Shown here: positions 12,318 through 32,104 of the stretch, in pieces
Numbering within the stretch: the stretch's first letter is position 1
How the letters are laid out: every line of letters starts with the position of its first letter
NCBI GenBank assembly: GCA_003563375.1
Contig: PWSB01000204.1
Coordinates: 1 to 32,104 of the forward strand
From: Actinomycetota bacterium
Lineage (GTDB): Bacteria; Actinomycetota; Humimicrobiia; Humimicrobiales; Humimicrobiaceae
Direction of reading: 5' to 3'
Length of the DNA: 32,104 nucleotides
Made by a program: the position numbers and the translations under genes
The notes under the pieces: generated by a model
Databases searched by the model: none
What the model was told of the DNA's origin: nothing
What the model saw: the letters and a program-made list of their open reading frames with translations, nothing else

Positions 12318-12323
12318 ATACCG

Positions 12324-16310: not shown

Positions 16311-16346
16311 TAATCTTTAATATGTTTTTTAAGGAGATTTTTAAAA

Positions 16347-17168: not shown

Positions 17169-17225
17169 CTACCTGTTTTTGAGTGATTTATGTAAGCAGT
17201 CATTTAAAATTGAAAGGAATTTAGG

Positions 17226-18704
17226 ATGGAAAAAAAAGATTTGGGCCTTATAGGCCTTGCGGTTATGGGTCAGAACCTTGTGCTTAATATAGAATCAAAA
17301 GGTTATTCTGCTGCAGTATACAACAGGACAGAAAGCAGGACAAAGGATTTTATTGAAGGAAAAGCAAAAGACAAAAATATAGAAGCCGCATTTTCTTTAA
17401 AAAAATTTGTGGACAGCATCAAAAGGCCAAGGAAAATCATGCTTATGGTAAAAGCCGGCAAGCCTGTAGACAATACCATTGAAGAAATCCTTCCCTTGCT
17501 TGAGCCGGGAGACCTTCTAATAGACGGGGGGAATTCATTTTATAAGGATACCATAAGAAGGGAGGAGTTTCTTTTAGAAAAAAATATCCTATACATAGGT
17601 ACCGGAGTTTCTGGCGGTGAGGAAGGGGCTCTTCTGGGTCCTGCCATTATGCCTGGAGGAAAGAGGAAGGCATATGATATGGTAAAAGATATATTTTCAG
17701 ATATTTCAGCAAAAGCAAAAGATGGCAAACCATGCGTATCTTATATAGGGCCAAATGGAGCCGGGCACTTTGTAAAGATGGTCCATAACGGGATCGAGTA
17801 CGGTGATATGCAGCTAATAGGAGAGTGCGTATGGGGTTTGAAGAATGCCCTTGGTTGGAATTCAGAACAAATTGCAGACATAATGGAAGAATGGGACAGG
17901 CCTTCTGACATATTATCCTCTTATCTTATAGAGATAACCGGCAAGGGGATGAGGGAGACCGAAAAGAAATCGGGAAGCTACCTGGTAGACAGGACCGCTG
18001 ATATTACCAGGATGAAGGGGACAGGCACATGGACGGTTGCAAGCGCTCTTGAGCTGCTTGTTCCAATACCTACAATAGCAGCAGCGGTATTTTCAAGGGA
18101 AACGAGCCAGGATAAGGACTTGAGGCTTGGGATTTCAAAGATATTGAAGCCGGCGGCTTCTAAAATAGATTTAAACGGGCAAAAATTCACTGATATAGCC
18201 CACGACGCCCTGTATATTGCCAAAATCTCTTCATACGCCCAAGGTTTTGCACTAATGGAGGCAGCGTCTTCTAAATACGGCTGGAACCTTGATATGGGAA
18301 GGATTGCCGAAGGTTGGAGAGCTGGATGCATAATACGGGCACAGTTTCTATCAAAGATCACTGAAGAATACAAGGCAGATCCAAAATTGCCCAATCTTAT
18401 GGCAGCGCCTTATTTTTCTAAATTTATCAACCAGAAACTTGTAAGCCTTTCAAGGTTTATTGAGGTTGCCCGCCATGTTGGAGTGCCTGCTCTTGCGATG
18501 GGGTGTGCTTATGACTACATACTTCAGATAGCCTCTCCTGTCATGGTATCAGCGCAGGTAGCCGCCCAGCAGAGGGACTACTTCGGCGCTCACGGCTATT
18601 TTAAGCTTAAGGATTCCCAAGAGATAGAGCTAAAACCTGATGGAAGCTACCAGGAATATCATACAGAATGGATGGAGGATGGCCGCCCGGAAAAAAAGTT
18701 ATAG
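17226..18704 (+). CDS. gnd: 6-phosphogluconate dehydrogenase, decarboxylating
   Basis: 492 aa. It shows GLIGLAVMGQNLVLN, GGNSFY, GTGVSGGEEGA, GAGHFVKMVHNGIEYGDMQLI and QRDYFGAHGY. Confidence 0.9.
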   Translation: MEKKDLGLIGLAVMGQNLVLNIESKGYSAAVYNRTESRTKDFIEGKAKDKNIEAAFSLKKFVDSIKRPRKIMLMVKAGKPVDNTIEEILPLLEPGDLLIDGGNSFYKDTIRREEFLLEKNILYIGTGVSGGEEGALLGPAIMPGGKRKAYDMVKDIFSDISAKAKDGKPCVSYIGPNGAGHFVKMVHNGIEYGDMQLIGECVWGLKNALGWNSEQIADIMEEWDRPSDILSSYLIEITGKGMRETEKKSGSYLVDRTADITRMKGTGTWTVASALELLVPIPTIAAAVFSRETSQDKDLRLGISKILKPAASKIDLNGQKFTDIAHDALYIAKISSYAQGFALMEAASSKYGWNLDMGRIAEGWRAGCIIRAQFLSKITEEYKADPKLPNLMAAPYFSKFINQKLVSLSRFIEVARHVGVPALAMGCAYDYILQIASPVMVSAQVAAQQRDYFGAHGYFKLKDSQEIELKPDGSYQEYHTEWMEDGRPEKKL

Positions 18705-18730
18705 AAAAAATACTGATTTAGGAGGCTGAT

Positions 18731-19810
18731 ATGACAAGTGAGTTTCGCAAAGACTGCAAATATAGCCTGATTACACCTACAAGCATAGGGGTCCGCATCA
18801 CTCCAGCAGGCAGGCAGCCGGTTGATTGCAGTTCAACTTTTTTTATGCAGACTACCAGTGCCGAGACCAATGTCGCAAGCGTGTCTTCTTATTTGGGCTT
18901 GCCCGTAAAAGTTCTTACTGTATTTGTAAAAGACAGTCCTATTTCAAAAATGATAAAAAGCAATCTAATGTCAAGAAATATGTCCTTTGAAGGCAAGGAT
19001 GTTTTCCAGGGGGGGCCATGGGGATACCGCCACCAGTTCAACATTGCTGACAGCGGTTATGGCTCCCGGCGCCCCAGGGTCCAAAATGACCGCGCTGGGG
19101 AAGTTGGCAGGATACTGAACACAGAGGATTTTGACCTGGATAGGATTTTTAATAGTGAGGGAGTTTCCATCCTCCACCTTTCGGGTCTTATCGTCTCCCT
19201 ATCCAGGCAGACAGGAAGCTTTTGCAGCAAGTTGGCCAAAGCTGCAAAGGAGAGCGGGACAAAGATTTGCTTTGATCTAAACTACAGGGCTTCATTTTGG
19301 AAGAACCGGGAAGATGAGCTTGGTAAAACCTTTTCCCGTATTGCACAACTTACAGATTACCTTGTGGGCAATGAGGAGGACTTCCAGCTCTGTCTTGGCT
19401 TAAAGGGCCCTGAGGCCGGTGGGAGGAAATTGTCCTCAAAGATTGAAAGCTTTAAGGAAATGATAAAGGATGTAAGGGAAAAATATCCCAGTACATCTGT
19501 TTTTGCCACGACCCTTAGAGAGGTGGTCAATGCAAATCGCCATCTATGGGGTGCAATAATGCTTGAAGGTGAAAGTTGGCATGTAATAGAACCGCGTGCA
19601 ATTGAGGTTATAGACCGGATAGGGGGCGGTGACGGATTTGTGGGGGGAATGCTTTACGGCATACTGAAGGGCTGGGAGCCTGAAAAGTGGATACAATTCG
19701 GCTGGGCATCCGGAGCATTCGTAGCTACCCTGATTACAGATTATGCTACTCCTGCAGACGAAGAACAGATATGGGATATCTGGCGCGGAAACGCAAGGGT
19801 CAGGCGTTAA
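18731..19810 (+). CDS. PfkB-family sugar-acid kinase (2-keto-3-deoxygluconate kinase-like)
   Basis: 359 aa. It has the C-terminal PfkB signature RIGGGDGFVGGMLYG and LVGNEEDF. Its overall layout resembles the long KdgK-type kinases. SD AGGAGG lies upstream. Confidence 0.7.
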   Translation: MTSEFRKDCKYSLITPTSIGVRITPAGRQPVDCSSTFFMQTTSAETNVASVSSYLGLPVKVLTVFVKDSPISKMIKSNLMSRNMSFEGKDVFQGGPWGYRHQFNIADSGYGSRRPRVQNDRAGEVGRILNTEDFDLDRIFNSEGVSILHLSGLIVSLSRQTGSFCSKLAKAAKESGTKICFDLNYRASFWKNREDELGKTFSRIAQLTDYLVGNEEDFQLCLGLKGPEAGGRKLSSKIESFKEMIKDVREKYPSTSVFATTLREVVNANRHLWGAIMLEGESWHVIEPRAIEVIDRIGGGDGFVGGMLYGILKGWEPEKWIQFGWASGAFVATLITDYATPADEEQIWDIWRGNARVRR

Positions 19811-19816
19811 AGCCTT

Positions 19817-21100
19817 ATGAGATTTATTGAAGATATAAACGGTATAGGCAAAGGTAAGCTTACCGGATTCATAGCTTCTATTTTAGAAGGTATAAATCCA
19901 GGCAAAAAGGTACTTGTGATCATTCCAGATTATACAAGGGTTGATTTCACGGATATAATCTGTCCCCTTATTGTAGATATTTTTAAAAAGAAAGGGGCCA
20001 TAAACTTAGATTTTCTAAATGCTGGTGGAACTCATAGGGGGATGACAGAGACTGAATTTTTTTTAAAACTTGGCCTGAAGGAGAAAGACTCAAGCATATC
20101 TTTTTATAACCATGATTACAGTGACCCCAAGAACCTGGTAACCATTGGGAGCATCTCTTTAGAACTTGTTAAAGAAAAAACGGAGGGCCAGCTTCGCAGG
20201 GCGATACCTGTGACATTGAATAAATTAATATTTTCTGGTTACAACACTATTATTGCAGTCTCCGGTACCGGGCCGCATGAAGCAGCTGGCTACTCGGGGG
20301 GCCTGAAGATTTTTTTTCCAGGCATATCAGGTCCTGAAGTGATTGACCTATTTCATTGGGCAGCTGTACTAGTGGGAATACCCGAAATTATGGGTACTGT
20401 AGACAATAATGCAAGGGATATAATCAACGAGGGGGCGGGACTTATATTTAATGGCATAGGTTGTGATGTTTTTACTTTGAATATGGTGAGTACAGAGGAA
20501 GACCGTTCAGTAATACCTAATGGCCTGTATTTGGACAAAGGTTATGAGGGTTTTTTAAATGTTTACAGGGCTGCCGCTGCTTTAAGCTCTAAACTTCATA
20601 TCAAATACATTGACCGGCCGCTTGAACGGGTGGTACAAGTAATCCCGGAGCACTTGGACGAGATCTGGACTGCTGCAAAAGGTTCATACAAACTACAGAA
20701 GCCCGGTGTAATGGCGAAGGGGGGTGAAATAATCCTGTACGGGCCGCATATAAGGAGCTTTCACTCCAATAAAAAAATAGATGAAGAACTCAAGGAAGTA
20801 GGTTATCACTGCAAAGATAAAATCTGCAGCATATTAGGCTCTGGAAAAAAAATAAGCAGAAAAAGCGCTTCTCATCTTATTAATGCAGCAGGACCTGGCA
20901 GATTTGACCCTGAAGCTAAAAAAGAAGAGATGGACTTTAAGCTTACCCTTGCGACCCAGATTCCCATGCAAGCCTGTAAGTCGATAGGATTAAATTACCG
21001 AGACCCAAAAACTATAAATAGATCTGATTTTCAAAAACCAGGTAGACTCTGGATCGAAAAAGGGGGAAAATATCTTTATATGCGAAAAAAAGGGGGGTGA
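19817..21100 (+). CDS. LarA-like (DUF2088) nickel-pincer-cofactor-type 2-hydroxyacid racemase/epimerase homologue
   Basis: 427 aa. It has IIPDYTRVD and NAGGTHRG (His73). In GPHEAAGYSGGLKIFFPG...FH, residues His154, Lys164 and His180 reproduce the H-x9-K-x15-H spacing of the LarA catalytic His, the cofactor-tethering Lys and the Ni-binding His (recalled as H174/K184/H200 in L. plantarum LarA). Confidence 0.7.
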   Translation: MRFIEDINGIGKGKLTGFIASILEGINPGKKVLVIIPDYTRVDFTDIICPLIVDIFKKKGAINLDFLNAGGTHRGMTETEFFLKLGLKEKDSSISFYNHDYSDPKNLVTIGSISLELVKEKTEGQLRRAIPVTLNKLIFSGYNTIIAVSGTGPHEAAGYSGGLKIFFPGISGPEVIDLFHWAAVLVGIPEIMGTVDNNARDIINEGAGLIFNGIGCDVFTLNMVSTEEDRSVIPNGLYLDKGYEGFLNVYRAAAALSSKLHIKYIDRPLERVVQVIPEHLDEIWTAAKGSYKLQKPGVMAKGGEIILYGPHIRSFHSNKKIDEELKEVGYHCKDKICSILGSGKKISRKSASHLINAAGPGRFDPEAKKEEMDFKLTLATQIPMQACKSIGLNYRDPKTINRSDFQKPGRLWIEKGGKYLYMRKKGG

Positions 21101-21168
21101 TACGGAAATAAAATATGTTTTTATGCTTTTTATTAATTTCAAAGTCTTAGGGAAAGGCGGTATGTGAC

Positions 21169-21930
21169 ATGGACAAGGAATTTACTCTTTTTAAAGACAC
21201 CGTATCAGGTATTCTGGAAAAAATAACAGGTGAAGAAAAAAATATAAAAAAAGCTGCAGATTTAATTGCCAAAGCCTTGATAAAGGGCAAAATAATCCAC
21301 GTAATCGGAACCGGGGGCCATTCTAATATGGGAGCTGAGGAGATGTTCTGGAGAGCAGGAGGATTGATCCCGGTCAATGCTATATTGGATGCCGGAATAA
21401 ATTTGATCAATGGAGCAAGAAGGACCACTATAATAGAAAGGACACCAGGCTATGGAATAAAGGTGATGGATGCATACAATGTCGGCCAAACTGCCGGTGA
21501 GGTTATTATTATCATAAACGCCTGCGGTATTAACACCATGACCATAGATGTTGCGCTGGAGGCAAAAAAGAGAAAGATGAAGACCATAGGGGTGACTTCA
21601 ACTTCTTTTGCAGACACGATCCCGAAAGGCCATCCGTCCAGGCACCCGAGCAATAAGAATCTGCATGATCTTGTCGATGTTTTTATAAATAATCACCAGC
21701 CCATAGGGGATGCAGTTATAGAGCTTGAAGGTGCAGACCAGAAGGTGGGTCCTGTATCTACTATTTGCAATTCATTTGCAGTGCAGCTGTTAGTAATAGA
21801 GACTGCAAAAAAGATGATAGAATCCGGGAAAAAACCTTTGATATGGAGGAGTGCCAATATGCCGGGAGGAGATGAGGCTAACCGTGAATATTTTAAAGAG
21901 TATTCTAAAAGGATAAAGCATCTGCTGTAA
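21169..21930 (+). CDS. Single-SIS-domain protein, UPF0309-like
   Basis: 253 aa. The pattern IKKAADLIAKALIKGKIIHVIGTGGHSNMGAEEMFWRAGGLIPVNAI is typical of the UPF0309/SIS_2 group. Confidence 0.7.
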   Translation: MDKEFTLFKDTVSGILEKITGEEKNIKKAADLIAKALIKGKIIHVIGTGGHSNMGAEEMFWRAGGLIPVNAILDAGINLINGARRTTIIERTPGYGIKVMDAYNVGQTAGEVIIIINACGINTMTIDVALEAKKRKMKTIGVTSTSFADTIPKGHPSRHPSNKNLHDLVDVFINNHQPIGDAVIELEGADQKVGPVSTICNSFAVQLLVIETAKKMIESGKKPLIWRSANMPGGDEANREYFKEYSKRIKHLL

Positions 21931-21990
21931 GGAAAGTTTTTTAAGGAAAGATGCATTCTGTTTGCTTATAAATACAAATAGGGGGGTTTT

Positions 21991-22956
21991 ATGAAAAAGC
22001 GGATCACAAGAGATAATGAGCCTGGTTTTGTTTTTGATTACAATAAAGAACCCGTGCTCACGGTAGAGGAAGGAGAAAGTTTTATAGTTGAGACCGAGGA
22101 CAACCTGTCAGGGCTTATCAAATCAGAAAATGATCCCCTGGTCGAAAAGCTTAAAAATTTTACCAAATATGATCCTCCAAAGTTTAATCCTGTCCATGGA
22201 CCCATATATATAAAAGGCGCTGCTAAAGGAGATCTTCTGGAAGTAAGCATTGAGAAAATAATACCTGCCCAAACAGGTATTTCAGCTATAGACCCAGATT
22301 CAGGGCCTCTTTCTGAAAACAAAAAATGGCCGGAGCTTGGGGAAGCTCATATAAAGATCTTAAAAAATATCCCTGGTCCCAGCGGCACTACCAGGGACGG
22401 AAAGGCTGTCTACAGTAAAAACATCTCCTGGGACCTAGACCCTATGATAGGGACAATCGGAGTGGCTACAGAATATGAGATACATGGTACATTAAATGGC
22501 CAGAAACCTTGTTGCGGCAATTGGGATTGCAAAGATATCAAAGAAGGAAGCAAGTTATATCTAAATTGCTTCCATGAGGGGGCCCTCCTTTTCCTTGGAG
22601 ATGTACATGCCAGCCAGGGGGACACAGAGTGGAGCTGTTCTGCCAATGAGGTGAAAGCAGAAGTCACGTTAAGCTGCAGGGTTATCAAGAATAAGAAAAT
22701 CCCCTATGCAAGGATAGAAAGAGAGGAATCGATTATCCAATTATTTGCGGATAAGCCTATAGAGGATGCATTACATAGGGCTATAATCCATCTTATGGAA
22801 TGGATGGTCGAAGAATACGGGGTAGGTCCAAAGGATGCTTATATAATGATCTCATGTAGTTCTGAGTTCAAAGTAAAGGTTTACCAAATGATAAGGAGCC
22901 CAAATCTTCCTTACGTTGTCGGAGCAGAAATACCAAGAAAATATCTGAAGGGATAA
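21991..22956 (+). CDS. Acetamidase/formamidase-family amidohydrolase (FmdA_AmdA)
   Basis: 321 aa. It has NPVHGPIYIKGAAKGDLLEVSI and CGNWDCKDIKEGSKLYLNCFHEGALLFLGDVHASQGDTE, which match the family core (GGN.D...G..lylPV...GAl...GD.HA.QGDGE). Confidence 0.75.
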   Translation: MKKRITRDNEPGFVFDYNKEPVLTVEEGESFIVETEDNLSGLIKSENDPLVEKLKNFTKYDPPKFNPVHGPIYIKGAAKGDLLEVSIEKIIPAQTGISAIDPDSGPLSENKKWPELGEAHIKILKNIPGPSGTTRDGKAVYSKNISWDLDPMIGTIGVATEYEIHGTLNGQKPCCGNWDCKDIKEGSKLYLNCFHEGALLFLGDVHASQGDTEWSCSANEVKAEVTLSCRVIKNKKIPYARIEREESIIQLFADKPIEDALHRAIIHLMEWMVEEYGVGPKDAYIMISCSSEFKVKVYQMIRSPNLPYVVGAEIPRKYLKG

Positions 22957-23003
22957 AAGGTTTTAACCAATATAATTATTTTTTATTATACGAGGAAGTA
23001 AAC

Positions 23004-24134
23004 ATGAAATATGAATGCTTGTGCCGTATTCCAAGCAGGACCGGGATATTTAAATTAATATATGGTGATGGCAAAATCAAATCGCTAAAGCCTGTGGAGG
23101 CTTTGAATGTGACAGAGTATGATATCCTTTGGCTTACTGCGGGCTTATTTGATATGCAGGTAAATGGTATGATGGGACATTTCCTATCTTCAGATGATTT
23201 AAATGTCAAAAAAATCTTAGAGATTGACAGAGAACTTGAAAAAAGAGGGACTCTGTTTTGGTGTCCAACCATTTGCACTCAAGAAACCAGGATTGTCAAA
23301 AAAAACTTAAAAATATTGAAAAGGGCAATTGAGCAAAAAACGCGGACCGGGATTTTTGGTATTCACATGGAAGGCCACTACATATCAGATTTAGAAGGCT
23401 ATAGAGGCGTTCATTCTCCTGAGTACATAAGGGATCCAGACATTGGTGAATTTAATGAATGGCAAGAAGCCTCCGGAGGCAATATAAGGCTCTTTTCACT
23501 AGCACCAGAAAGAAATGGGGGTATCGATTTTATTAAATATTTGAGAAATCAAGGCATAAAGGCCGGCTTGGCTCATCATTCTGCAGAATACAGCTTGATC
23601 CTGGAAGCAGTAGCTATGGGAGCAGACCTGGCCACGCATTTGATCAATGGCTGTGTTCCTTTCATACACAGGCAGCATAATGTGATATGGTCTCAGTTAT
23701 CAATAGATGAGTTGTGGGCTAGTTTTATTGCAGACGGCCATCACATCCCGCATTATACTTTAAGAGCTGCAATAAAAGCAAAAGGCACCAATAGGTCAAT
23801 ACTGATATCTGACCTATTTTATCTTTCAGGTTTACCCGAAGGGACGTATATATCGGAATCAAATAGGAAGGAAGTAATACTTAAAGACGATGGTTTATGG
23901 ATAAAGGATGAAGATATGTTATGTGGGGCCGCAAAGACCTTGGACAGGGGAGTTGAGTTTATTGCAAGGTATTGCAACTTCAGTATTGAAGATGCCCTGG
24001 TAATGGCTTCAATAAATCCAGCCCTTTATTTTGGGATTGAAGATAAGATGATGATCTACCCGGGCAGAAAAGGGCCCTTAGCAGTATTTGCCTGGAAGAA
24101 TAATAAGCTAGAAGTCGAAAAAATCTTAAAGTGA
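23004..24134 (+). CDS. NagA/AgaA-like amidohydrolase (N-acetylhexosamine-6-phosphate deacetylase family, mononuclear Q-x-N subtype)
   Basis: 376 aa. It has FDMQVNG (Gln52/Asn54 replace the H-x-H pair, as in E. coli NagA), HMEGHY, LAHHS, THLINGC, ADGHHIP and LISD. SD GAGGAAG lies upstream. Confidence 0.7.
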   Translation: MKYECLCRIPSRTGIFKLIYGDGKIKSLKPVEALNVTEYDILWLTAGLFDMQVNGMMGHFLSSDDLNVKKILEIDRELEKRGTLFWCPTICTQETRIVKKNLKILKRAIEQKTRTGIFGIHMEGHYISDLEGYRGVHSPEYIRDPDIGEFNEWQEASGGNIRLFSLAPERNGGIDFIKYLRNQGIKAGLAHHSAEYSLILEAVAMGADLATHLINGCVPFIHRQHNVIWSQLSIDELWASFIADGHHIPHYTLRAAIKAKGTNRSILISDLFYLSGLPEGTYISESNRKEVILKDDGLWIKDEDMLCGAAKTLDRGVEFIARYCNFSIEDALVMASINPALYFGIEDKMMIYPGRKGPLAVFAWKNNKLEVEKILK

Positions 24135-24151: not shown

Positions 24152-24928
24152 TCATATTATTCTTGAAGCTGATTCCATATCTAAAAACAACTTGGCCTTT
24201 TTAGTCTTACGAAGGATTGAAGCAGGAAACTTAGGGTCTACAGGTTTATTTAAAGTTGAATATACAGCCCCTGACTTTCTGCTTTCGGGGACAATGCAAA
24301 ATATTCTTTTTGCTGCCAGTAATCCCGGAATTGTGACAGAAATCGCATGAGTGGGGACATCCTTTATAGATTTGAAATGCCCCTCGTTGATCTGTTGCTG
24401 ACGGCTTTTCTCTTCCAGTTTTACAACCTTTACCCAAACAGGATCTTCAAAATCTGCAACACCGGGTTCATTAAATGCAAGATGCCCGTTTTCACCTATA
24501 CCTGCGCAACAGACATCTATGGGATGGGCTTTAAGCAGATATTCATAACCTCTGCAGGCAGTTTCTGGATCTTGGGGATGACCAGGGACAGGGAAAAACG
24601 AACTTACATTAGCATGACGCAAAAAATTTTTTTTCAAATATGATGAAAAACTGGCGGGGTGTTCAAAGGGTAGATCAAGATATTCATCTAAATGGAAAAT
24701 ATTTACGGCGGGCCAATAAATATCTTTTATTTTGGTCAATTTCTTTAAAAAGCTTAGCTGTGAATTGCCTGTGGCCAGCATTATGTTTGCGATGTTTTTA
24801 CTACTGATAGCCTCTTTTATAGCGGCAGCGGCTTCTTCTGCTGCAGCTTCACCCATTTGCTGGTTTGTTTGATATATCTCTATGCTTAGATCATCGACTG
24901 TCTTTTCGTGCAATAAACCAGTCCCCAT
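24152..24928 (-). CDS. nagB: Glucosamine-6-phosphate deaminase
   Basis: 258 aa. It has LATGNSQ, HLDEY and GIGENGHLAFNEPG. SD AAGGAGG lies on the minus strand just upstream of the start. Confidence 0.85.
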   Translation of the reverse strand: MGTGLLHEKTVDDLSIEIYQTNQQMGEAAAEEAAAAIKEAISSKNIANIMLATGNSQLSFLKKLTKIKDIYWPAVNIFHLDEYLDLPFEHPASFSSYLKKNFLRHANVSSFFPVPGHPQDPETACRGYEYLLKAHPIDVCCAGIGENGHLAFNEPGVADFEDPVWVKVVKLEEKSRQQQINEGHFKSIKDVPTHAISVTIPGLLAAKRIFCIVPESRKSGAVYSTLNKPVDPKFPASILRKTKKAKLFLDMESASRII

Positions 24929-25193: not shown

Positions 25194-25243
25194 TTGACAA
25201 TATTCAATATATTATCTTATAATTAATTATGCAAACGTTTTAA
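25194..25243 (+). promoter_or_regulatory. Near-consensus promoter TTGACA-18-TATAAT followed by a LacI/CcpA-type half-palindrome TGCAAACGTTTTAA
   Basis: TTGACA lies at 25194-25199 and TATAAT at 25218-25223. The 14-mer at 25230-25243 is CG-centred and is symmetric at 5 of its 7 base pairs. It sits about 335 nt upstream of the SBP start. Confidence 0.45.
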
Positions 25244-25577
25244 ATTTCTGTGGCCTATTGTTATTTTAATCAATTTTAGTATATTTTTGGATTATAAGAG
25301 GTTTAAGGATTTAAAAGATGAATTCTGACAAACTTAAGTCCCCAAAACGAAATTTATTTACCAGAGAAATTTCATGTGACAGAATTTATAACATGTCTCC
25401 TAAATATACCCATACAGGAAATCTAGTTATATGACGAAACTTTTAGAGAAAGAACTATATAAAGCTTACATAAGGTTTTAAGAATTTCAGTAACAGGAGG
25501 TGATATCATCAAAAGACCAATGGGATTTGTTTATATAAATAAATTCCAACATAATTAAAAAAATTGGGGGAGGAAAA

Positions 25578-26672
25578 ATGAAAAAAATAATATTATGTAC
25601 TCTGGTTGTTGTATTTGTTTCAACGCTTACTTTTCTAGGGACAGGTTGTAGGCCCGCAGCTGTAGAAGAAGAGCCTACTGCCGAAGAGCCTGCAGCCGAA
25701 GAGCCTGCAGCCGAGGAGCTTGTAGAAGAGCCTACTGCTGAAGAACCTGCAGCCGAAGAGCCTGTAGTGGTCGCAGAAGAGGATTTAAAATTCATACATA
25801 TCAACGCTAGTGATCCTGCAGATCCTTTTATATCCAAAATAAGTGTGGGTTGGAATGAGGCAGTAGAGAAATTAGGGGTAGATTCAGATGAACGATTCGC
25901 TTATGGAGACGTATCAACGATGATAGATTATACCAATGCAGCCATTGCAGAAAATGTGGACGGTATTTTTGTATTTAACAGTCTTGATGCAGATGCCCTG
26001 CACCCGTCTGTGGAGCAGGCTCTTGACAATGGGATTGCATTTGCTCTGGTGAGTTCCAGGGATCCTGTATTTGGTCCCGAAGACGTTTCTTTTGTAGGCT
26101 TTGACCTTGAAGAACAAGGATATACATCAGGCGAATGGCTGGCAGAACAATTGACAGAAGAAGGAAGGACAACTGATGTAAACGTTGGTATAATGGCAGA
26201 ATTTAATGCACCATATTCTCAAATGAGGAGTGCAGGGATTCTTGCAGCATTGGATGATGCAGGGATAACTTATAATGCCTCAGAAATTTATGAGGTCGGC
26301 GTAGACCTTGGAGAAGCGGTAAATATCGTTCAGTCTTATATGCTAGCTAATCCTGATACAGATGTTCTTTTGGGAATGGGCAGTTTGTCCAGCCCGGCAT
26401 GTGTAATGGTATTGCAGGATCTGGGATATGAACCAGGAGAGACCATATGGGCTGGTTTTGACCTTGCTCCTGAAGTTGTAACCGGAATAGAAGCTGGATA
26501 CGGAGCCAGTAATGTGGATGAGGTGTTCAACTACGGCTTCCTACCGGCTATTGCACTTTACCTGAGAGCGAAATATGATTTCCAGGTTGGAGACCTACCA
26601 GTTGCTACAGTAATGGTAGATTCCACCAATATTGAAGGATTTCTATATTGGGTAGACCAGGGAATAAAGTAA
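25578..26672 (+). CDS. Sugar ABC transporter substrate-binding lipoprotein (PBP type 1, CUT2-like) with a repetitive acidic linker
   Basis: 364 aa. It has a signal peptide with Cys24 (FLGTGC), a roughly 45-aa Glu/Pro/Ala linker, then a PBP1 core. SD GGGGGAGG lies upstream. Confidence 0.85.
   Translation: MKKIILCTLVVVFVSTLTFLGTGCRPAAVEEEPTAEEPAAEEPAAEELVEEPTAEEPAAEEPVVVAEEDLKFIHINASDPADPFISKISVGWNEAVEKLGVDSDERFAYGDVSTMIDYTNAAIAENVDGIFVFNSLDADALHPSVEQALDNGIAFALVSSRDPVFGPEDVSFVGFDLEEQGYTSGEWLAEQLTEEGRTTDVNVGIMAEFNAPYSQMRSAGILAALDDAGITYNASEIYEVGVDLGEAVNIVQSYMLANPDTDVLLGMGSLSSPACVMVLQDLGYEPGETIWAGFDLAPEVVTGIEAGYGASNVDEVFNYGFLPAIALYLRAKYDFQVGDLPVATVMVDSTNIEGFLYWVDQGIK
25662..25781 (+). repeat. In-frame tandem repeat encoding the (V/A)EEP(T/A)A linker
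   Basis: The exact 15-nt unit GCCGAAGAGCCTGCA occurs at 25680-25694 and 25695-25709, with a degenerate third unit at 25710-25724. At a higher order there are two 20-codon units, VEEEPTAEEPAAEEPAAEEL and VEEPTAEEPAAEEPVVVAEE. Confidence 0.85.
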
Positions 26673-26690
26673 ATCCCTTAGCTCTAGTAA

Positions 26691-26728
26691 CGGCAGGGAG
26701 TAGGAATTCTACTCCTTGCCGCTTTTTT
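26691..26728 (+). terminator. Rho-independent terminator/attenuator between the SBP and permease genes
   Basis: CGGCAGGGAGTAG (26691-26703) pairs with CTACTCCTTGCCG (26709-26721) to form a 13-bp stem with one G-U pair and a 5-nt loop. It is followed by CTTTTTT (26722-26728). Confidence 0.75.
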
Positions 26729-26781
26729 AAATTTGAGAAAAAGCTTTTAGATTCAATATATTACTTCTGAAAGGCGGCAGG

Positions 26782-27783
26782 ATGAATGACAGGACCACCA
26801 AAAATATAGGGAATTTGAATAATAAAAGTATAGCTAGCAGGATTGGGGCGATAAGAGAAATAATAATCTTTGGGCTGACAGTTGGTTTATTTATAATTTT
26901 TTATTTCACGACCAGAGGTATTATGTTTGCCCCTGCTACTTTAAGGATAATATTTGTTGCTGTTGCTGAATTAGGGCTGGTAGCTATTGGCATAACTATG
27001 TTAATCATAGCTGGAGAATTTGACCTTTCTGTTGGCTCAATATCAGCTATGGGTGCTCTATTGGCTGCCAGGTTTTATCAAATGGGAGTTAATCCGTTTT
27101 TAGCCCTTGGTATCTCTTTGATTGCGGGTATTGCCCTAGGTGGTTTTAATGGTTTTATAACGGTTAGGTTTAAGCTGCCATCCTTCATAATAACGTTGGC
27201 CACCATGATTGGTTACAGGGGCCTGATTTACGTGATCACCGAAGGAGTACCGATAGGTTTCAGGGTTATAGACACTCATCCCGGCTTTCACAGGTTGCTT
27301 ACGGGTATGCTGACAGTGATTCCTATTCCTTTGATCTGGCTTGTAGTGGGTACTGTGATCCTTATATTGCTGTTGAATTTTCGAAGGTTTGGTAACCATG
27401 TCTATGCTGTAGGGGGACACAAGGAAACAGCAAGGGCAATGGGAATAAATATAAATAAAACAAAAATGATCTGTTTCATGATTTTAGGGATGCTTTCTTC
27501 TTTTGCAGGGGTAATGAGAGTAACCCGTATAAGAAGTTTTCATTCGCTGCAGGGAGAGGGGATAGCCTTGCTGGCTATTGCTGCTGCAGTGATAGGAGGG
27601 ACTCTCCTTCAAGGCGGTGTAGGAACAATACTGGGTGCTGTACTGGGAACTATTGTCATCGTGCTGATAGAATATGGCCTTATAATGTCTGGGGTTGGTG
27701 CATATATGTACAACCTTGTTTTGGGAGCTGTTATTATAATAGTTGTAATATTAAACAATGTTATTGAACAAAGGAGAACATGA
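26782..27783 (+). CDS. Sugar ABC transporter permease (RbsC-like)
   Basis: 333-aa polytopic protein with the motif IAGEFDLSVGSISAM. Its stop overlaps the ATPase start (ATGA at 27780-27783). Confidence 0.9.
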   Translation: MNDRTTKNIGNLNNKSIASRIGAIREIIIFGLTVGLFIIFYFTTRGIMFAPATLRIIFVAVAELGLVAIGITMLIIAGEFDLSVGSISAMGALLAARFYQMGVNPFLALGISLIAGIALGGFNGFITVRFKLPSFIITLATMIGYRGLIYVITEGVPIGFRVIDTHPGFHRLLTGMLTVIPIPLIWLVVGTVILILLLNFRRFGNHVYAVGGHKETARAMGININKTKMICFMILGMLSSFAGVMRVTRIRSFHSLQGEGIALLAIAAAVIGGTLLQGGVGTILGAVLGTIVIVLIEYGLIMSGVGAYMYNLVLGAVIIIVVILNNVIEQRRT

Positions 27784-28511
27784 TGGAACAGGTTTCCCTG
27801 CTGGAAACTAAAAATATTCATAAATGGTATGGAAAAATACACGCTGTAAATGGGGTAAGTTTTACGATAGATAAAGGTGAAATTCTAGGATTGATAGGAG
27901 ACAACGGGGCGGGGAAATCATCTTTATTAAAAGTTCTGTCAGGATATCATTGTCAGGACCAGGGAGAGATCTTCATAGAAGGGGAAAAGGTGGTCATCAA
28001 CTCCCCAGCTGATGCCAGAGAGCTTGGGATTGAGACAGTCTATCAAGAAAGGGCATTGGTGGATTCTATGAGTTTGGCCAGAAACTTTTATATGGGTAGA
28101 GAACCTGTGAATAGAGCAGGATTCTTAAACAAAAGAAAAATGGCAGAATGCATAGATGTATTAAAAGAAATAGGGCTTACAATTAACTCTCCAGACTATC
28201 TTGTCGCCAATCTCTCAGGAGGCCAGAGACAGGGTGTGGCGATAGGCAGGGCAATGTATTTTAAGGCTAAAATGGTTCTTCTGGATGAACCCACAACGGC
28301 TTTGTCGGTAAAAGAAGTGCACAGGGTGCTGGATTTAGTGCTTGAATTTAAAGCCGCGGGGATTGCTGTAATCTTTATCACCCACAATATTCAACATGTT
28401 TATGATATCTCTGACAGGTTCTTGATATTAGAAAATGGAGAAAAAATAAAGGATATCGAGAAGGCCGGTACGTCTGTGAAGGAACTCTCAGAAGTCTTAA
28501 TGGGTGAATAA
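27780..28511 (+). CDS. ABC transporter ATP-binding protein, single-domain type
   Basis: 243 aa. It has Walker A GDNGAGKSS, signature LSGGQRQ and Walker B LLDEPTTAL. There is only one nucleotide-binding domain. Confidence 0.9.
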   Translation: MMEQVSLLETKNIHKWYGKIHAVNGVSFTIDKGEILGLIGDNGAGKSSLLKVLSGYHCQDQGEIFIEGEKVVINSPADARELGIETVYQERALVDSMSLARNFYMGREPVNRAGFLNKRKMAECIDVLKEIGLTINSPDYLVANLSGGQRQGVAIGRAMYFKAKMVLLDEPTTALSVKEVHRVLDLVLEFKAAGIAVIFITHNIQHVYDISDRFLILENGEKIKDIEKAGTSVKELSEVLMGE

Positions 28512-29984
28512 ATGCCTGAATACATGCTTGGGGTTGATATTGGTACCGGTAGCTGTAAAGCCACTATCCTTAGCAATGAGGGTAATATCATTGCTACATG
28601 TTCAAATAAATATAATACCCATTACCCTAAAAGGGGATGGGCTGAACAAAATCCCCAGGATTGGTATCAAGCATTAAAGCGCTCCCTGCATCATATTTTT
28701 GATAATACAGGCCTCAAAAAAAAAGACATAGTCTCGATCGGGATAGACGGGATGATGAACAGCCCTGTTTTCCTAGACCAAGAGGGCAGGATACTCCGCT
28801 CGACTATCATCTGGATGGACCAAAGAAGCGAGGCCCAAGTTAAATGGTTGAAAAAAAACTTAAAAAATAATATAAAATTTCCTATTACTTCTACTACACT
28901 TCTCAGCAAAGCCATGTGGTTAAAGGAAAATCAACCTGGTATATGGAAGAAAGTATGGAAGATCCTTTTGCCTAAAGATTTCATCAGGTTTAAATTAAGC
29001 AATTCTTTTGTCACTGATTTCTCAGATGCTTCAGCTACCCATTTATTCGATGTAGAAAAACTTACCTGGTCCGATGAGATCATTGGAATAACAGGTATAG
29101 ACAAGAAAAAACTCCCTGAAGCTGTTTCGTCTACAGAAATTGCCGGCCGCCTGTCCAAGGGTCCAGCTGAGGAATTAGGATTGCAGGAAGGAACCCCTAT
29201 AATAGCTGGTTGTTCTGATTCAGCATCTGATAATCTTACTGCAGGGGTAATATATGCAAATCAGTGTTTGATCAGGCTTGGCACCTGTGGTGCATTATTC
29301 ATGCTGATAGACAAATTGCCTGCCGGGCAATCAGAGCGATACTACATAATTGTACATTCCGTACCTGACAGGTGGATGATACATCTAGCCACACCGGCAG
29401 GTCTTGCAATAGAATGGTTCAAGCAGGCCTTTTGCGGGCAGGATTCTGTTATTACTAATGAAACATTTGATGCTAGGGCCAAAGGGATCCCGCCAGGTTC
29501 ACATGGCCTTATTTTTCACCCTTACCTATCAGGGGAACACACTCCTCGTGAAGGGTTTGACCTGAGGGGAGATTTTGTCGGAATAAATCATAAGCATACA
29601 AATGATCATTTTTTCAGGGCTGTATTGGAAGGCATCTCATTTTCCATCAAGGAGTGTTTTGAGACATTTGAAGAAATAAACCCACAAATTAAGTCTATCA
29701 GGGCAGTGGGCGGGGGGATGAAAAGCAGACTATGGCGGGAGATCTTAACAAATATCATCGGCAAAGAAATGGAACTCCCTGTTTTTGAGGACCCATCGTT
29801 TGGGTCGGGGCTGCTGGGAGGGATAGGGGTCGGCCTCTTTGAGGATTTTGAAGATGCTGTAAAAAAATGCGTCCAAATAAAAGAAAGAGTAAAACCCGAT
29901 AAATCAATTCAAATAAAGTATAGCGAGGCCTTTGATTTATATAAAAACGTACTTGATAGACTGCAGGACCTATTATGGATATAG
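28512..29984 (+). CDS. FGGY-family carbohydrate kinase (xylulokinase-like)
   Basis: 490 aa. It has MLGVDIGTGSCKATI, GWAEQNPQDWY and the C-terminal GGGMKSRLWREILTNIIG. The start codon directly abuts the ATPase stop (TAA-ATG). Confidence 0.85.
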   Translation: MPEYMLGVDIGTGSCKATILSNEGNIIATCSNKYNTHYPKRGWAEQNPQDWYQALKRSLHHIFDNTGLKKKDIVSIGIDGMMNSPVFLDQEGRILRSTIIWMDQRSEAQVKWLKKNLKNNIKFPITSTTLLSKAMWLKENQPGIWKKVWKILLPKDFIRFKLSNSFVTDFSDASATHLFDVEKLTWSDEIIGITGIDKKKLPEAVSSTEIAGRLSKGPAEELGLQEGTPIIAGCSDSASDNLTAGVIYANQCLIRLGTCGALFMLIDKLPAGQSERYYIIVHSVPDRWMIHLATPAGLAIEWFKQAFCGQDSVITNETFDARAKGIPPGSHGLIFHPYLSGEHTPREGFDLRGDFVGINHKHTNDHFFRAVLEGISFSIKECFETFEEINPQIKSIRAVGGGMKSRLWREILTNIIGKEMELPVFEDPSFGSGLLGGIGVGLFEDFEDAVKKCVQIKERVKPDKSIQIKYSEAFDLYKNVLDRLQDLLWI

Positions 29985-30045
29985 GATTTTAGGAAGTAAT
30001 TGGCCTGACCTACAAAATGCCATCATGTCCTTATAAGGAGTTTAA

Positions 30046-31203
30046 ATGAATAGCAGAGAGAGAGTTTTAGAAACACTTAAGCACCGCGAGCCAGATTTAA
30101 TACCTTTCGATATAGGAGGAGCACCGAACACTAATATACATATAATCTCTTATCGCAACCTATTAAGATATCTGGGAGACAATAGAGAAGTAAAGCTGGG
30201 AGATGCAATTTTTCAGACGTCATTGATAGACGAAGATATTCTACAGCGGTTAAAGGTTGACCTGCGGGGGCTGGACTTTGCTGTCTTTGGTTCAGAGAAG
30301 ATCCACAATGAGCTAAAAGAAGATGAGAAATACTTTTATTTCACCGGGGATTGGGGCATTGACTGGGTCATGCCCAAAACCAATGGACTATATTTTGACA
30401 TAAGGCGGCGGCCTTTATCCGGCAGGATTGACAGCAGGGATGTGGATGCAATAGATGTCCCCGGCATGCCTAGCCAGGAAGAAATCGAAATCTTTAAAAA
30501 GAAAGCAAATTATTTTAAAGAAAGTGGTTTGGCAGTGGTGCTTGCGGGACCTGACGGGGGCATACTAGAACATGCCTTTGCTATCAGGGGCCATGAAGAT
30601 TTTTTAATCGACCTGCTCTCAGAACCCGGCTTGGCAAAAAGGTTGCTTGATAAGATTTTAAGATATAAGCTAAACTACTGGGAACTTATGCTTGAACAAA
30701 TGGGGGACCTTATAGATATAGTTTCAGAAGGGGATGATATAGCCACCCAAAAAGGCATGATAATGAGTCCCCAGCTGTACCGGGATATGCTTAAACCATT
30801 TCACCGTGAACTTTTTTCTTTCATTAAAAAAAATGCAAAAAAACCGCTGTTCATAAATTTCCATTCCTGCGGAGCCATCAAAGAGCTTATCCCAGACTTT
30901 ATCGAGGCAGGAATAAATTCCTTGCACCCTGTACAGGTTAGTGCAAAAGGCATGGATACAAAGGAACTGAAAAAAGAGTTTGGGGACGACCTGACCTTTT
31001 GGGGAGGGGGTATTGACACCCAACATGTATTATCACGGGGCACGACAGAAGAAGTAAAGGATGAAGTAAAAAGGAGGATAGACGATTTAGCTCCGGGAGG
31101 CGGCTTCATATTTGCAGCCGTACATAATATCCAGGCAGATGTACCCCCTGAGAATATCATGGCTATGTGGGAGACGTTCAATGAGTTTAGGAGTTATAAA
31201 TAA
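30046..31203 (+). CDS. URO-D/MtaA-like fold protein, paralogue 2. Function unknown and probably sugar-related.
   Basis: 385 aa. It is a paralogue of 4830-5921. It has H273-S-C275 (FHSCG, 30862-30870) at the position of the MT2 zinc H-x-C motif, and the C-terminal block LAPGGGFIFAAVHNIQADVPPENIMAMW. SD AAGGAG lies upstream. Confidence 0.7.
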   Translation: MNSRERVLETLKHREPDLIPFDIGGAPNTNIHIISYRNLLRYLGDNREVKLGDAIFQTSLIDEDILQRLKVDLRGLDFAVFGSEKIHNELKEDEKYFYFTGDWGIDWVMPKTNGLYFDIRRRPLSGRIDSRDVDAIDVPGMPSQEEIEIFKKKANYFKESGLAVVLAGPDGGILEHAFAIRGHEDFLIDLLSEPGLAKRLLDKILRYKLNYWELMLEQMGDLIDIVSEGDDIATQKGMIMSPQLYRDMLKPFHRELFSFIKKNAKKPLFINFHSCGAIKELIPDFIEAGINSLHPVQVSAKGMDTKELKKEFGDDLTFWGGGIDTQHVLSRGTTEEVKDEVKRRIDDLAPGGGFIFAAVHNIQADVPPENIMAMWETFNEFRSYK

Positions 31204-31244
31204 ATCAGGACCCAGGGCAATTTAATTTTGGCCAGGAGGGATAT

Positions 31245-32104
31245 ATGAGTCTTTATATAAAAGGGGGGAAAGTATTTTTACCGGATAAATCAATGTCATA
31301 TAATACCCTGCTAATAGAAGGCAAGCTAATAAGCGGGATAATTCCAACCGAATACAGACCTGGAAGCAAGGATAAAGTAATAGATGCAACCGGGATGATG
31401 TTAGTCCCTGGTTTTATAGATATTCACATCCATGGAGCCTTTGGCAAAGACAGCATAGAGGGTACTTGTGAGTCTATTAAAACGATCGGGAGGTTTATTT
31501 CCTCTCATGGCACTACGTCATACTTGCCGACGATCGGAACCTTTGAGTCAGGGTTGGTAATGAAATCTATACATAATATAATGGCCTGCACTCCTCCTGA
31601 AGATGGTGCCAGGCAACTAGGCGTTCATATCGAAGGCCCGTATCTTAATGTCGAACATAGAGGGGCCCAGCAAAAAGACATGATCAGAAGCCCCGATCCT
31701 TCCGAATATCAAGAATGGCTAGAGACTGAGGCTGTAAAATTGGTTACAATCGCACCGGAAGTCGAAAATGCCCTCGATTTCATTGATTTAGGCACAAAAC
31801 AAGGCGTGGAATTCGCAATAGGGCATAGTGGGGCAAGATATGAGCAGGTAATCGAGGCTGTTGAACATGGCCTCAGACAGGCTTCTCATTTATATAATGG
31901 TATGTCCGGGCTCCATCACAGAGCTCCCGGACCGGTGGGAGCCATTCTAACAGATGACCGGATCTTTGCCCAGATCATTGCCGATGGTGTCCACGTACAT
32001 CCGGCAATGGTTAAGCTTGCGGTTTTGGCCAAAGGTGTATCCAGGATAATTCTTATCTCTGATAGTATCCCCGGAACAGGGTTAGATGATGGAGATTATG
32101 ACTA
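31245..32104 (+). CDS. nagA: N-acetylglucosamine-6-phosphate deacetylase (binuclear H-x-H subtype), 3'-truncated by the window end
   Basis: This open frame is absent from the ORF track because it has no stop in the window. My hand translation gives MSLYIKGGKVFLPD...VPGFIDIHIHGAFG...HIEGPYL...IGHSGA...SHLYNGM...IADGVHVHP...LISDS. SD AGGAGGG lies at 31234-31240. Confidence 0.85.
   Translation, partial: MSLYIKGGKVFLPDKSMSYNTLLIEGKLISGIIPTEYRPGSKDKVIDATGMMLVPGFIDIHIHGAFGKDSIEGTCESIKTIGRFISSHGTTSYLPTIGTFESGLVMKSIHNIMACTPPEDGARQLGVHIEGPYLNVEHRGAQQKDMIRSPDPSEYQEWLETEAVKLVTIAPEVENALDFIDLGTKQGVEFAIGHSGARYEQVIEAVEHGLRQASHLYNGMSGLHHRAPGPVGAILTDDRIFAQIIADGVHVHPAMVKLAVLAKGVSRIILISDSIPGTGLDDGDYD

Follow-up and report, generated by a model that had tools for sequence, protein, structure and literature searches.

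An MtaA-like protein of the uroporphyrinogen decarboxylase fold in a sugar-catabolic operon of the Humimicrobiaceae: a possible sugar demethylase

Introduction

The O-demethylases of acetogens and Desulfitobacterium use a methyltransferase I of the MtvB, OdmB or Dhaf_4610 type, an enzyme of the uroporphyrinogen decarboxylase (URO-D) superfamily that passes an ether methyl group to a corrinoid protein. It acts on aryl methyl ethers, which offer a good leaving group. The URO-D barrel is also that of MtaA, the methylcobamide:coenzyme M methyltransferase of Methanosarcina, while CmuA, the chloromethane methyltransferase, carries a fused corrinoid domain. Here we analysed a 32,104-nt stretch of DNA (the window; contig PWSB01000204.1 of assembly GCA_003563375.1) from an Actinomycetota bacterium of the Humimicrobiaceae. 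From position 25578 to its end, six plus-strand reading frames encode a substrate-binding protein (SBP), an ATP-binding cassette (ABC) permease, an ABC ATPase, an FGGY-family kinase, a URO-D-like protein (paralogue 2) and NagA (Table 1). The locus is a binding-protein-dependent sugar catabolic operon of a familiar kind, with an enzyme family that has no assigned function and a combination of steps that has not been described. Our preferred reading, to which we give a probability of about 0.4, is that it forms one operon for a modified sugar of the N-acetyl-hexosamine type, from which the URO-D-like protein would remove a methyl (or similar) group by chemistry of the MtaA/CmuA type.

The catabolism of amino sugars provides the other terms of comparison. 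The N-acetylgalactosamine (aga) pathway of Escherichia coli comprises AgaA, AgaS, KbaZ/KbaY and a tagatose-6-phosphate kinase. In Streptomyces, NagS (SCO4393), the only characterised UPF0309 protein, dehydrates N-acetylglucosamine-6-phosphate (GlcNAc-6-P), and NagA then acts on the product; 6-phosphogluconate binds NagS tightly and inhibits it (PMC12680351). The verified orthologues of NagS share at least 58.7% identity, occur in Streptomycetaceae only and show linkage to dmdR1 (PMC12680351). Marine bacteria have an oxidative chitin pathway for 2-acetamido-2-deoxygluconate (GlcNAc1A), in which an N-acetylated amino-sugar acid is reportedly deacetylated and deaminated to a product of the 2-keto-3-deoxygluconate (KDG) type; the abstracts on this pathway mention neither a URO-D-like nor an FGGY component (PMC9537276, PMC12017989).

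Algal, plant and microbial glycans commonly contain methylated sugars, whose methyl group blocks the usual catabolic enzymes. The P450 sugar O-demethylase acting on 6-O-methyl-D-galactose needs oxygen (PMC6292453, PMC10033563), and the sugar demethylases in the literature that we searched were all oxygen-requiring P450 enzymes (PMC6292453). Literature searches that linked URO-D-like proteins to sugars, corrinoid proteins to monosaccharides or methylated sugars, and URO-D to ABC transporters, and a search on UPF0309, brought up no account of either the family or the operon, and a preprint on the mlp gene cluster deals with other MtaA homologues without mention of sugars (PMC10418091). In agreement with the original prediction, made from the sequence of the window, we found no published pathway that combines a CUT2 transporter, an FGGY kinase, a URO-D-fold enzyme and NagA.

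Results

The URO-D-like protein is related to MtaA

We compared both URO-D-like proteins of the window, which are 34% identical, with curated models. The hemE model (TIGR01464, cut-off 302.95 bits) had no match in paralogue 2 at E ≤ 0.001 and gave 24.9 bits for paralogue 1. The N-terminal RQAGR is the substrate-binding motif of the HemE family; it is absent from both paralogues, and the N-terminus of paralogue 2 resembles that of MtaA instead. Since the hemE model is unmatched and RQAGR is missing, paralogue 2 is not a haem-pathway decarboxylase. The curated models that it matched were of the MtaA/CmuA type only.

Structural comparisons gave the same picture. In a search of the PDB with a 31-sequence profile (a single sequence gave noise only), the best solved relative was MtaA (4ay7, E 9e-9), whose HiCG motif aligned with the HSCG of paralogue 2. 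The AlphaFold (AF2) model of paralogue 2, with a predicted local distance difference test (pLDDT) score of 94.9, had MtaA as its top Foldseek match (4AY7, E 4e-14, template modelling score 0.64-0.72), followed by HemE structures and MetE. The two proteins have the same barrel, the segment H-x-EPD-x-x-P of paralogue 2 corresponds to GEPVDKVP of MtaA, and its H-x-C-G is aligned with the zinc-binding H-x-C-G of MtaA. They differ in that their identity is only about 16%, that paralogue 2 has 385 residues against 340, with an insertion around residues 40-130, and that its genomic context is sugar uptake, not methanogenesis. An invariant H360-N-x-Q363 places its histidine eight residues beyond the position of the downstream Cys of MtaA. 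The two-part architecture of CmuA is matched by a relative of paralogue 2 (P0124, see below), whereas the window protein is unfused, lies in a carbohydrate operon and scores 55 bits against the MtaA/CmuA cut-off of 235. Taken together, these observations point to methyl transfer of the MtaA/CmuA type, and not to decarboxylation, as the URO-D-like step, for which the original prediction had named no chemistry.

The putative metal site differs between the two copies as had been predicted: paralogue 2 has F-H273-S-C275-G where paralogue 1 has Y-H251-S-D253-G. The cysteine form is the rule in the family, with H-[ST]-C-G in 114 of 120 homologues and H-C-C-G in two more, and the Asp variant of paralogue 1 occurs in three of the 120. 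The family of paralogue 2 contains 1,115 clusters (at 50% identity) at E ≤ 1e-30, and 11,156 at E ≤ 1e-3. The source names of its members say nothing beyond "uroporphyrinogen decarboxylase family" or an MtaA-type label. The best match in a reference genome is 54% identical. All the family-invariant residues are retained in the window protein, which indicates that the enzyme is still under selection.

The family is associated with sugar importers and corrinoid proteins

We collected 160 related loci from reference genomes and metagenomes (numbered L001 onwards), and compared the neighbours of the URO-D-like genes with the window proteins and with each other. In the clustering of neighbours, open reading frames (ORFs) with homologues were given priority, to guard against the long antisense ORFs of high-GC Chloroflexia contigs; several ORFs without a family in Chloroflexia loci are probably shadow ORFs. 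Frequencies were counted within 4 kb of the gene in those 68 distant loci (43-63% identity) whose flanks extend for 4 kb or more on each side. ABC transporter genes of the CUT2 type were present in 27 of these loci (40%), an amidase of any of three types in 13 (19%), a corrinoid protein of the MtaC type in 10 (15%), a NagA-like gene in nine (13%), and an FGGY kinase in six (9%). The ABC genes are often immediately upstream of the URO-D-like gene, in many phyla. The recurrent amide hydrolases belong to three folds (NagA-type, creatininase-type, and the FmdA/AmdA type found in the window), and other recurrent neighbours are xylose-isomerase-like barrels, oxidoreductases of the GFO and Zn-ADH families, and the aldolase of 2-keto-3-deoxy-6-phosphogluconate (KDPG). 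Some loci contain little beyond regulators, the transporter and the URO-D-like gene, which fits an enzyme that turns an imported compound into an ordinary metabolite. The association with sugars is frequent and not universal, since the homologue of Thermanaeromonas (52%) is outside any recognisable sugar-catabolic locus: it lies among genes for amino-acid metabolism and oxidoreductases, and the nearest sign of sugar uptake is a CUT2-type ABC transporter encoded on the same strand about 7 kb upstream.

Four loci (L013, L056, L165 and L166) encode a module of a creatininase-family amidohydrolase, a xylose-isomerase-like barrel, an FGGY kinase and the URO-D-like protein. This module parallels the amidase, kinase and URO-D theme of the window with non-orthologous parts, and in L013 a corrinoid protein directly follows the URO-D-like gene.

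MtaC-type proteins, with a cap domain (PF02607) and a B12-binding domain (PF02310), are encoded adjacent to or near the URO-D-like gene in 19 of the 160 loci. The adjacent ones have 210 residues and carry the D-x-H-x-x-G loop in the B12-binding domain. The corrinoid-linked members are scattered over the neighbour-joining tree of the family, and include the sister group of the clade of the window. P0124, which is 45% identical to paralogue 2 over its full length, is a natural fusion with a complete module of cap and B12-binding domains that has the D-x-H-x-x-G loop. In the Anaerolineae locus L027 (3397-16871), a CUT2 importer, a DUF4380 protein, a xylose-isomerase-like barrel, the URO-D-like protein and a corrinoid protein are encoded together with MtaB, a DUF1638 protein, a RACo activase and a homocysteine (Hcy) S-methyltransferase domain. 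From its gene content, L027 is a predicted complete methyl-transfer system beside sugar-uptake genes. L097 and L066 have two URO-D-type genes with the corrinoid-protein gene beside or between them (in L097 the order is URO-D, corrinoid protein, a 165-aa ORF and a gene of the URO-D2 type), which is the typical arrangement of methyltransferase systems. In gene arrangement these triads look like those of the O-demethylases of acetogens and Desulfitobacterium; the window differs from those systems by its context of sugar import and sugar-phosphate enzymes.

Along the lineage that leads to the window, the corrinoid partner is lost in steps. A complete corrinoid-protein gene is found a short way upstream in L097-L099 (50% identity), with a single 165-aa ORF in between. 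In L091 (61%) the 3' end of such a gene is directly upstream. L003 (68%; 3040-4770, P0018) has a decayed corrinoid-protein gene: its cap domain is frameshifted, it lacks 17 residues that include the cobalt-binding His loop, and without its stop codon the remnant runs on in frame into the URO-D-like gene. This fused frame, P0018, has three member sequences in the protein collection.

Operon structure and conserved gene order

All six frames and their gene identities were found where the original prediction had placed them, and so were their junctions. The stop codon of the permease gene overlaps the start of the ATPase gene by 4 nt (ATGA at 27780-27783, read from the sequence), the TAA of the latter (28509-28511) is followed by the ATG of the kinase gene (28512-28514) with 0 nt between, and the gaps upstream of the URO-D-like gene and of nagA are as short as claimed (61 and 41 nt). 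Ribosome-binding sites precede these last two genes (AAGGAG and AGGAGG, respectively). The view that the genes form one unit is also supported, with a single perfect sigma-70-like promoter upstream, overlapping or abutting genes, and no further terminator-like site with a long G+C-rich stem past the hairpin behind the SBP gene. Tight packing is common to any operon and unremarkable alone; it is the conserved order in relatives that gives it meaning.

The close relatives of the URO-D-like gene (68-80% identity) are all in metagenome contigs, and the core is kept in every contig that is long enough. The order FGGY, URO-D-like, (SDR), NagA, SIS_2 is found in eight related contigs at 68-78% identity, which disposes of the refutation named with the original prediction, namely a gene order that relatives do not keep. 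Four of them (L001, L087, L137 and L089) have SBP, permease, 243-aa ATPase, FGGY, URO-D, (SDR), NagA and SIS_2. L002 has SIS, FGGY, URO-D, NagA and SIS_2 in different surroundings, and L003 has permease, ATPase, FGGY, URO-D, ZnADH, SDR, SIS_2, NagA and SIS. The SDR gene between the URO-D-like gene and nagA is missing in the window, L002 and L089, and present in others. L087 and L137 also share the upstream block of SIS_2, FmdA/AmdA, a NagA-like gene and a divergent nagB; hence the last 11 kb of the window are syntenic with both. In distant loci of Chloroflexia (about 45% identity) the URO-D-like gene shares an 8-nt overlap with a NagA-like gene, with a GntR/UTRA regulator nearby, and to judge from these sequences this is a second, independent instance of the URO-D/NagA pairing.

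The relatives also answer the question of what follows nagA, which is cut by the window end. The next gene encodes a 250-aa SIS_2 protein of the UPF0309 type, similar to NagS, which strengthens the idea of an amino-sugar substrate put forward earlier. Behind it lies either GatZ/KbaZ or a five-gene string that encodes UxaE, a mannonate oxidoreductase-like SDR, 6-phosphogluconate dehydrogenase, a KDG-kinase-like PfkB protein, and a nickel-dependent putative hexonate epimerase. The window has this string too, in an upstream position (14811-21100).

Importer, kinase and amino-sugar enzymes

The label CUT2 was correct for two parts of the importer, the Peripla_BP_4 SBP and the BPD_transp_2 permease. 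It fits the ATPase less well: this protein is half-size (243 aa) and covers only positions 1-235 of the YtfR, XylG and AraG models (492-513 residues), in contrast with the two fused domains (about 500 aa) of the CUT2 type that are found in the 509-aa double ATPase of the first URO-D locus of the window. Half-size ATPases are known in some CUT2-class systems. The best curated match of the SBP is weak (rhizopine SBP, 74 bits for a cut-off of 420), and its best solved relative is PDB 2h3h (62 bits), deposited as the periplasmic sugar-binding protein of a sugar ABC transporter. The permease scored 150-164 bits with the GguB, YjfF, RbsC and AraH-like models, in all cases under the equivalog cut-offs. 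Both SBPs of the window have long Ala/Glu/Pro-rich linkers behind the lipoprotein signal.

The kinase is barely over the cut-off of the XylB model (TIGR01312; 382.3 bits for 380.25), has the gluconokinase model as second-best match (265 bits) and XylB of E. coli as best solved relative (2itm, 231 bits). Its closest relatives, xylulokinases and gluconokinases, act on open-chain or ketose substrates, not on pyranose amino sugars. There is no gene for an isomerase of xylose or another pentose in the 32-kb window, or in L001, L002, L003, L087 and L137.

The 286 residues of NagA encoded in the window suffice to pass the cut-off of TIGR00221 (237.1 bits for 225.65), and full-length orthologues of 382-389 aa are present in L001, L002, L087 and L089. 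The SIS_2 protein that follows in L087 (13258-14010) is 39% identical to NagS (201.8 bits). This is below the level of the verified orthologues and its genomic context is not that of dmdR1. It keeps all nine active-site residues of NagS (H53, S54, R64, S91, E94, S119, S121, D179 and N228), as listed for the Streptomyces enzyme (PMC12680351), and its ligand is likely to resemble an N-acetylhexosamine phosphate. The pair of NagS-like and NagA proteins of the relatives differs from that of Streptomyces in that it sits in a catabolic operon behind an importer. We also considered an etherase of the MurQ type for the SIS_2 proteins, and discarded it because they had no match to the MurQ model at E ≤ 1e-5.

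The set of enzymes is reminiscent of the E. coli aga pathway in its NagA-type deacetylase, its AgaS/GlmD-like double-SIS protein (window 1306-2370; adjoining the operon in L001-L003), its GatZ/KbaZ homologue (L001, L002 and L089, 487 bits) and its PfkB kinases. It differs by uptake through an ABC transporter and not a phosphotransferase system, hence the need for a kinase, here of the FGGY type. Moreover, no KbaY aldolase was seen in it, and the URO-D-like and NagS-like genes have no counterpart in the aga pathway.

Putative promoter, operator and RNA elements

Both hexamers of the promoter-like sequence are kept in L137, although the remainder of the intergenic region has diverged. The LacI/cre-like site just downstream of the -10 box has two mismatches to TGCAAACGTTTGCA and is the best match in the window; its part GCAAACG.TTTAAATTT is kept in L137, and by its position and sequence it is a candidate operator. 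An operator of the LacI type common to both URO-D loci was sought and rejected, as this was the one good site and the palindrome upstream of paralogue 1 is a different one. The divergent arrangement of the nagB-like gene is also found in L087 and L137.

The leader stem-loop is present in the window, L087 (about 5325-5352), L137 and L001, with changes on both arms and, in L001, an insertion of 30 nt in the loop. It has no T run behind it and matches no Rfam family. No riboswitch, including the cobalamin riboswitch, was found by Rfam on the whole window or by a permissive scan of the 650-nt leader. Of the terminator-like sites, a single one combines a long, G+C-rich stem with a clean T run; this hairpin is directly behind the SBP gene (-24 kcal/mol; 13 bp in the ViennaRNA fold, or 14 pairs in a pattern scan). 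It is a probable partial terminator that would raise the expression of the SBP over that of the remaining genes, as is commonly seen in ABC operons.

Table 1. Features of the operon region, in window coordinates
Feature	Position	Strand	Description
nagB-like glucosamine-6-phosphate deaminase	24152..24928	-	divergent; shares 649-nt intergenic region with the operon
Promoter-like TTGACA-18-TATAAT	25194..25223	+	12/12 matches; about 355 nt upstream of SBP start
LacI/cre-like half-palindrome TGCAAACGTTTTAA	25230..25243	+	candidate operator just downstream of the -10 box
Leader stem-loop/palindrome	25521..25548	+	12-bp arms; 30 nt upstream of SBP start codon
SBP, lipoprotein-type, 364 aa	25578..26672	+	Peripla_BP_4 (106 bits); Ala/Glu/Pro-rich linker
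G+C-rich hairpin and T run	26691..26731	+	in the SBP-permease gap of 109 nt
ABC permease, 333 aa	26782..27783	+	BPD_transp_2 (137 bits); monosaccharide (CUT2) type
ABC ATPase, 243 aa	27780..28511	+	single nucleotide-binding domain, ABC_tran
FGGY-family sugar kinase, xylulokinase-like, 490 aa	28512..29984	+	FGGY_N and FGGY_C
URO-D-fold paralogue 2, 385 aa	30046..31203	+	PF01208; H273-S-C275, H360-N-x-Q363; putative MtaA/CmuA-like zinc methyltransferase
nagA, N-acetylhexosamine-6-phosphate deacetylase	31245..32104	+	first 286 codons; runs past the window end

Other features of the window

A string of genes on one strand (14811-24134) joins the uronate/aldonate enzymes, from UxaE to the hexonate epimerase, to SIS_2, an FmdA/AmdA amidase and a NagA-like gene (23004-24134; 205.8 bits, under the NagA cut-off). 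It encodes no transporter. A coherent reading of its gene content is the catabolism of an N-acetyl-hexosaminuronate, which would proceed by deacetylation and deaminating isomerisation to tagaturonate or fructuronate, and then via mannonate, gluconate and 6-phosphogluconate to ribulose-5-phosphate. The UPF0309/SIS_2 protein of this string (21169-21930) is 29% identical to NagS. It keeps H53, R64, E94, D179 and N228, and has N and C in place of the phosphate-binding serines S119 and S121, which would fit a non-phosphorylated ligand (perhaps a carboxylate).

The first URO-D locus (3585-13295) encodes a LacI regulator, paralogue 1 with its H-S-D motif, an SBP, the double ATPase, a permease, a GH4 glycosidase, GalK and GalT. 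These Leloir genes suggest that its substrate may be galactose-based. An antisense ORF of 222 aa (6982-7650, minus strand) overlaps the SBP gene of this locus at its end and the ATPase gene at its start; its translation is of low complexity and rich in Leu, Ile, Phe and Ser, and it looks like a shadow ORF rather than a gene. At the edge of the sugar island (57-1050), a nucleotidyltransferase gene (Polbeta/NTP_transf_2) overlaps a gene with a weak HEPN domain, and their arrangement resembles a minimal NTase-HEPN pair of the toxin-antitoxin kind. The G+C content of the window ranges between 0.31 and 0.46, with peaks in both SBP genes and at 17-21 kb.

Discussion

In the pathway that we favour, the lipoprotein SBP, the permease and the single-domain ATPase would import the compound, and the xylulokinase-like FGGY kinase would phosphorylate it or a product of it. 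The URO-D-fold protein would act as a methyltransferase of the MtaA/CmuA type, probably zinc-dependent, and pass a small alkyl group, most likely methyl, from the sugar to cob(I)amide. NagA would then strip the N-acetyl group, and the NagS-like SIS protein encoded just past the window end, NagB and the AgaS/GlmD-like SIS protein would lead the product to central metabolism. The sequence kinase, URO-D-like protein, NagA, which had been proposed before, was read off the order of the genes. The sequence data establish which genes are present, their operon-like layout and conserved order, the MtaA-like fold and motif, and the ties of the family to sugar transporters and corrinoid proteins; the demethylation, the amino-sugar character of the substrate, the succession of steps and the present source of a corrinoid are inferred.

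A number of observations weigh against this pathway. Both paralogues miss the cut-off of the MtaA/CmuA model TIGR01463 (235.4 bits) with 54.9 bits for paralogue 2 and 67.3 for paralogue 1, and by these scores they are remote relatives of these methyltransferases and not members. The third zinc ligand of MtaA, the Cys of PGCG, is Gly in the family of paralogue 2 (APGGGF). Source names and literature revealed no experimental study of any member of the URO-D subfamily. We know of no demonstration of the corrinoid-dependent cleavage of an aliphatic (sugar) methyl ether, and of no FGGY kinase that acts on an N-acetylhexosamine. The 32-kb window encodes no corrinoid protein, RACo activase or second methyltransferase, and none of these is found within 10 kb in the seven closest relatives (68-78%) with upstream flank (L088, which starts only about 300 nt before the URO-D-like gene, was left out of this count). 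By tblastn, there is no trace of a corrinoid-protein remnant at 71-80% identity or in the window, and 85% of the well-flanked loci of the family have no corrinoid gene nearby. The pseudogene of L003 suggests that the partner is dispensable in the lineage of the window and that the enzyme may no longer use a corrinoid. Finally, NagS homologues that share 26-36% identity and come from bacteria other than Streptomycetaceae showed no activity on GlcNAc-6-P (PMC12680351), and the 39% homologue may have another substrate.

The enzyme may now obtain its corrinoid protein from another source, or it may have ceased to need one. The second possibility is the alternative that survives best, and we consider it unlikely rather than remote: the operon and the class of substrate would be the same, and after the loss of its partner the URO-D-fold enzyme would have become corrinoid-independent and reused its metal site of the His/Cys/His type. 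It might transfer an alkyl group directly to a thiol, as MetE does, or catalyse a hydrolytic, lyase or isomerase step. The gradient of loss speaks for such a history, with a corrinoid gene upstream at 50-61% identity, a pseudogene at 68%, and nothing at 71-80% and in the window, and so does the rarity of corrinoid genes near members of the family at large. The cobalamin-independent MetE, of the same superfamily, is among the structural matches, and the retention of all invariant residues implies selection for some activity. Yet these residues are common to the corrinoid-linked relatives, which argues for unchanged chemistry, a corrinoid protein can come from elsewhere in the genome, and an alternative activity would be without precedent in the URO-D subfamily.

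It is decidedly less probable, though still worth considering, that the operon serves for the uptake of an N-acetylated amino-sugar acid. This could be an aldonate such as 2-acetamido-2-deoxygluconate, which derives from oxidised chitin, or else an N-acetyl-hexosaminuronate. The FGGY kinase would phosphorylate the open-chain acid, and NagA and the SIS protein would deacetylate and deaminate or dehydrate it in the direction of KDPG or 6-phosphogluconate. This would agree with the action of FGGY kinases on open-chain or ketose substrates and with the gluconokinase model as second-best match. In L001, L087 and L088 the operon continues straight into the uronate/aldonate string from UxaE to the epimerase, and in the window this string lies just upstream, joined to SIS_2, the FmdA/AmdA amidase and the NagA-like gene. 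The tight binding of 6-phosphogluconate to NagS and the recurrence of KDPG aldolase beside URO-D/NagA pairs in Chloroflexia point in the same direction. However, nagA passes the equivalog cut-off for GlcNAc-6-P deacetylase, and the AgaS/GlmD-like, NagB and GatZ/KbaZ genes of the window and its relatives fit neutral hexosamine phosphates. The GlcNAc1A pathway reportedly has unphosphorylated intermediates and other enzymes (OngB and OngC), of which OngB is said to be related to amino-acid deacetylases. The idea is favoured by the fact that a catabolic pathway for GlcNAc1A is known (PMC9537276).

Two further explanations are poorly supported. Unrelated modules could lie side by side: the importer would take up a pentose for its xylulokinase, the URO-D-like gene would have no part in this, and nagA would be a housekeeping gene. 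The kinase does just reach the XylB equivalog cut-off, the nearest solved relative of the SBP is a deposited binding protein of a sugar ABC transporter, and the order shared by the close relatives may reflect no more than the close kinship of their genomes. A chance juxtaposition is nevertheless very improbable: the window has no xylose isomerase gene, the core survives in the rearranged surroundings of L002 and L003, URO-D-like genes lie directly behind ABC transporter genes in many phyla, and URO-D is again paired with NagA or with FGGY in unrelated phyla, where the kinases are not orthologous (27-33% identity). The least probable explanation, a true cofactor-free decarboxylase of an acidic amino sugar, can draw on the Pfam URO-D domain, on haem URO-D structures as the second tier of structural matches and on the neighbouring uronate/aldonate genes of the window and relatives, but it is at odds with the unmatched hemE model and absent RQAGR, with MtaA as the closest solved relative and its aligned H-x-C motif, and with corrinoid neighbours and intact and decayed fusions that make no sense for a decarboxylase. 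Moreover, the chemistry of URO-D relies on a pyrrole as electron sink, which a sugar carboxylate does not have.

If the demethylation reading is right, the P450 sugar O-demethylase is a functional analogue, which likewise removes a methyl ether that blocks the catabolism of a sugar. It has an unrelated fold, depends on O2 and yields formaldehyde, whereas the system of the operon would be independent of oxygen and conserve the methyl group. A broader form of this idea is more doubtful and we hold it only tentatively: the URO-D-fold family would provide the catalytic parts of an undescribed oxygen-independent, corrinoid-dependent demethylation of imported methylated sugars, a methylated N-acetyl-hexosamine in this operon and a methylated galactose or galactoside at the locus of paralogue 1. 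The latter would be the obvious candidate there if the family removes methyl groups.

For the anaerobes that meet methylated sugars in sediments, guts and digesters, a family of at least 1,115 clusters that lies directly behind sugar importers in many phyla, and is repeatedly paired or fused with B12-binding proteins, is a concrete and testable candidate for the seemingly missing chemistry. Should the methyl idea prove wrong, the operon would still represent an uncharacterised amino-sugar route with three enzymes of unassigned specificity (the FGGY kinase, the URO-D-like protein and the NagS-like SIS protein), and its lineage is a clear case of the stepwise loss of a partner gene. If it is true, anaerobes would have in this family their own equivalent of the P450 sugar demethylases, and it would be widespread among them, in Chloroflexota, Spirochaetota, Verrucomicrobiota, Bacillota and others; its confirmation would tie the degradation of carbohydrates to one-carbon and cobamide metabolism.

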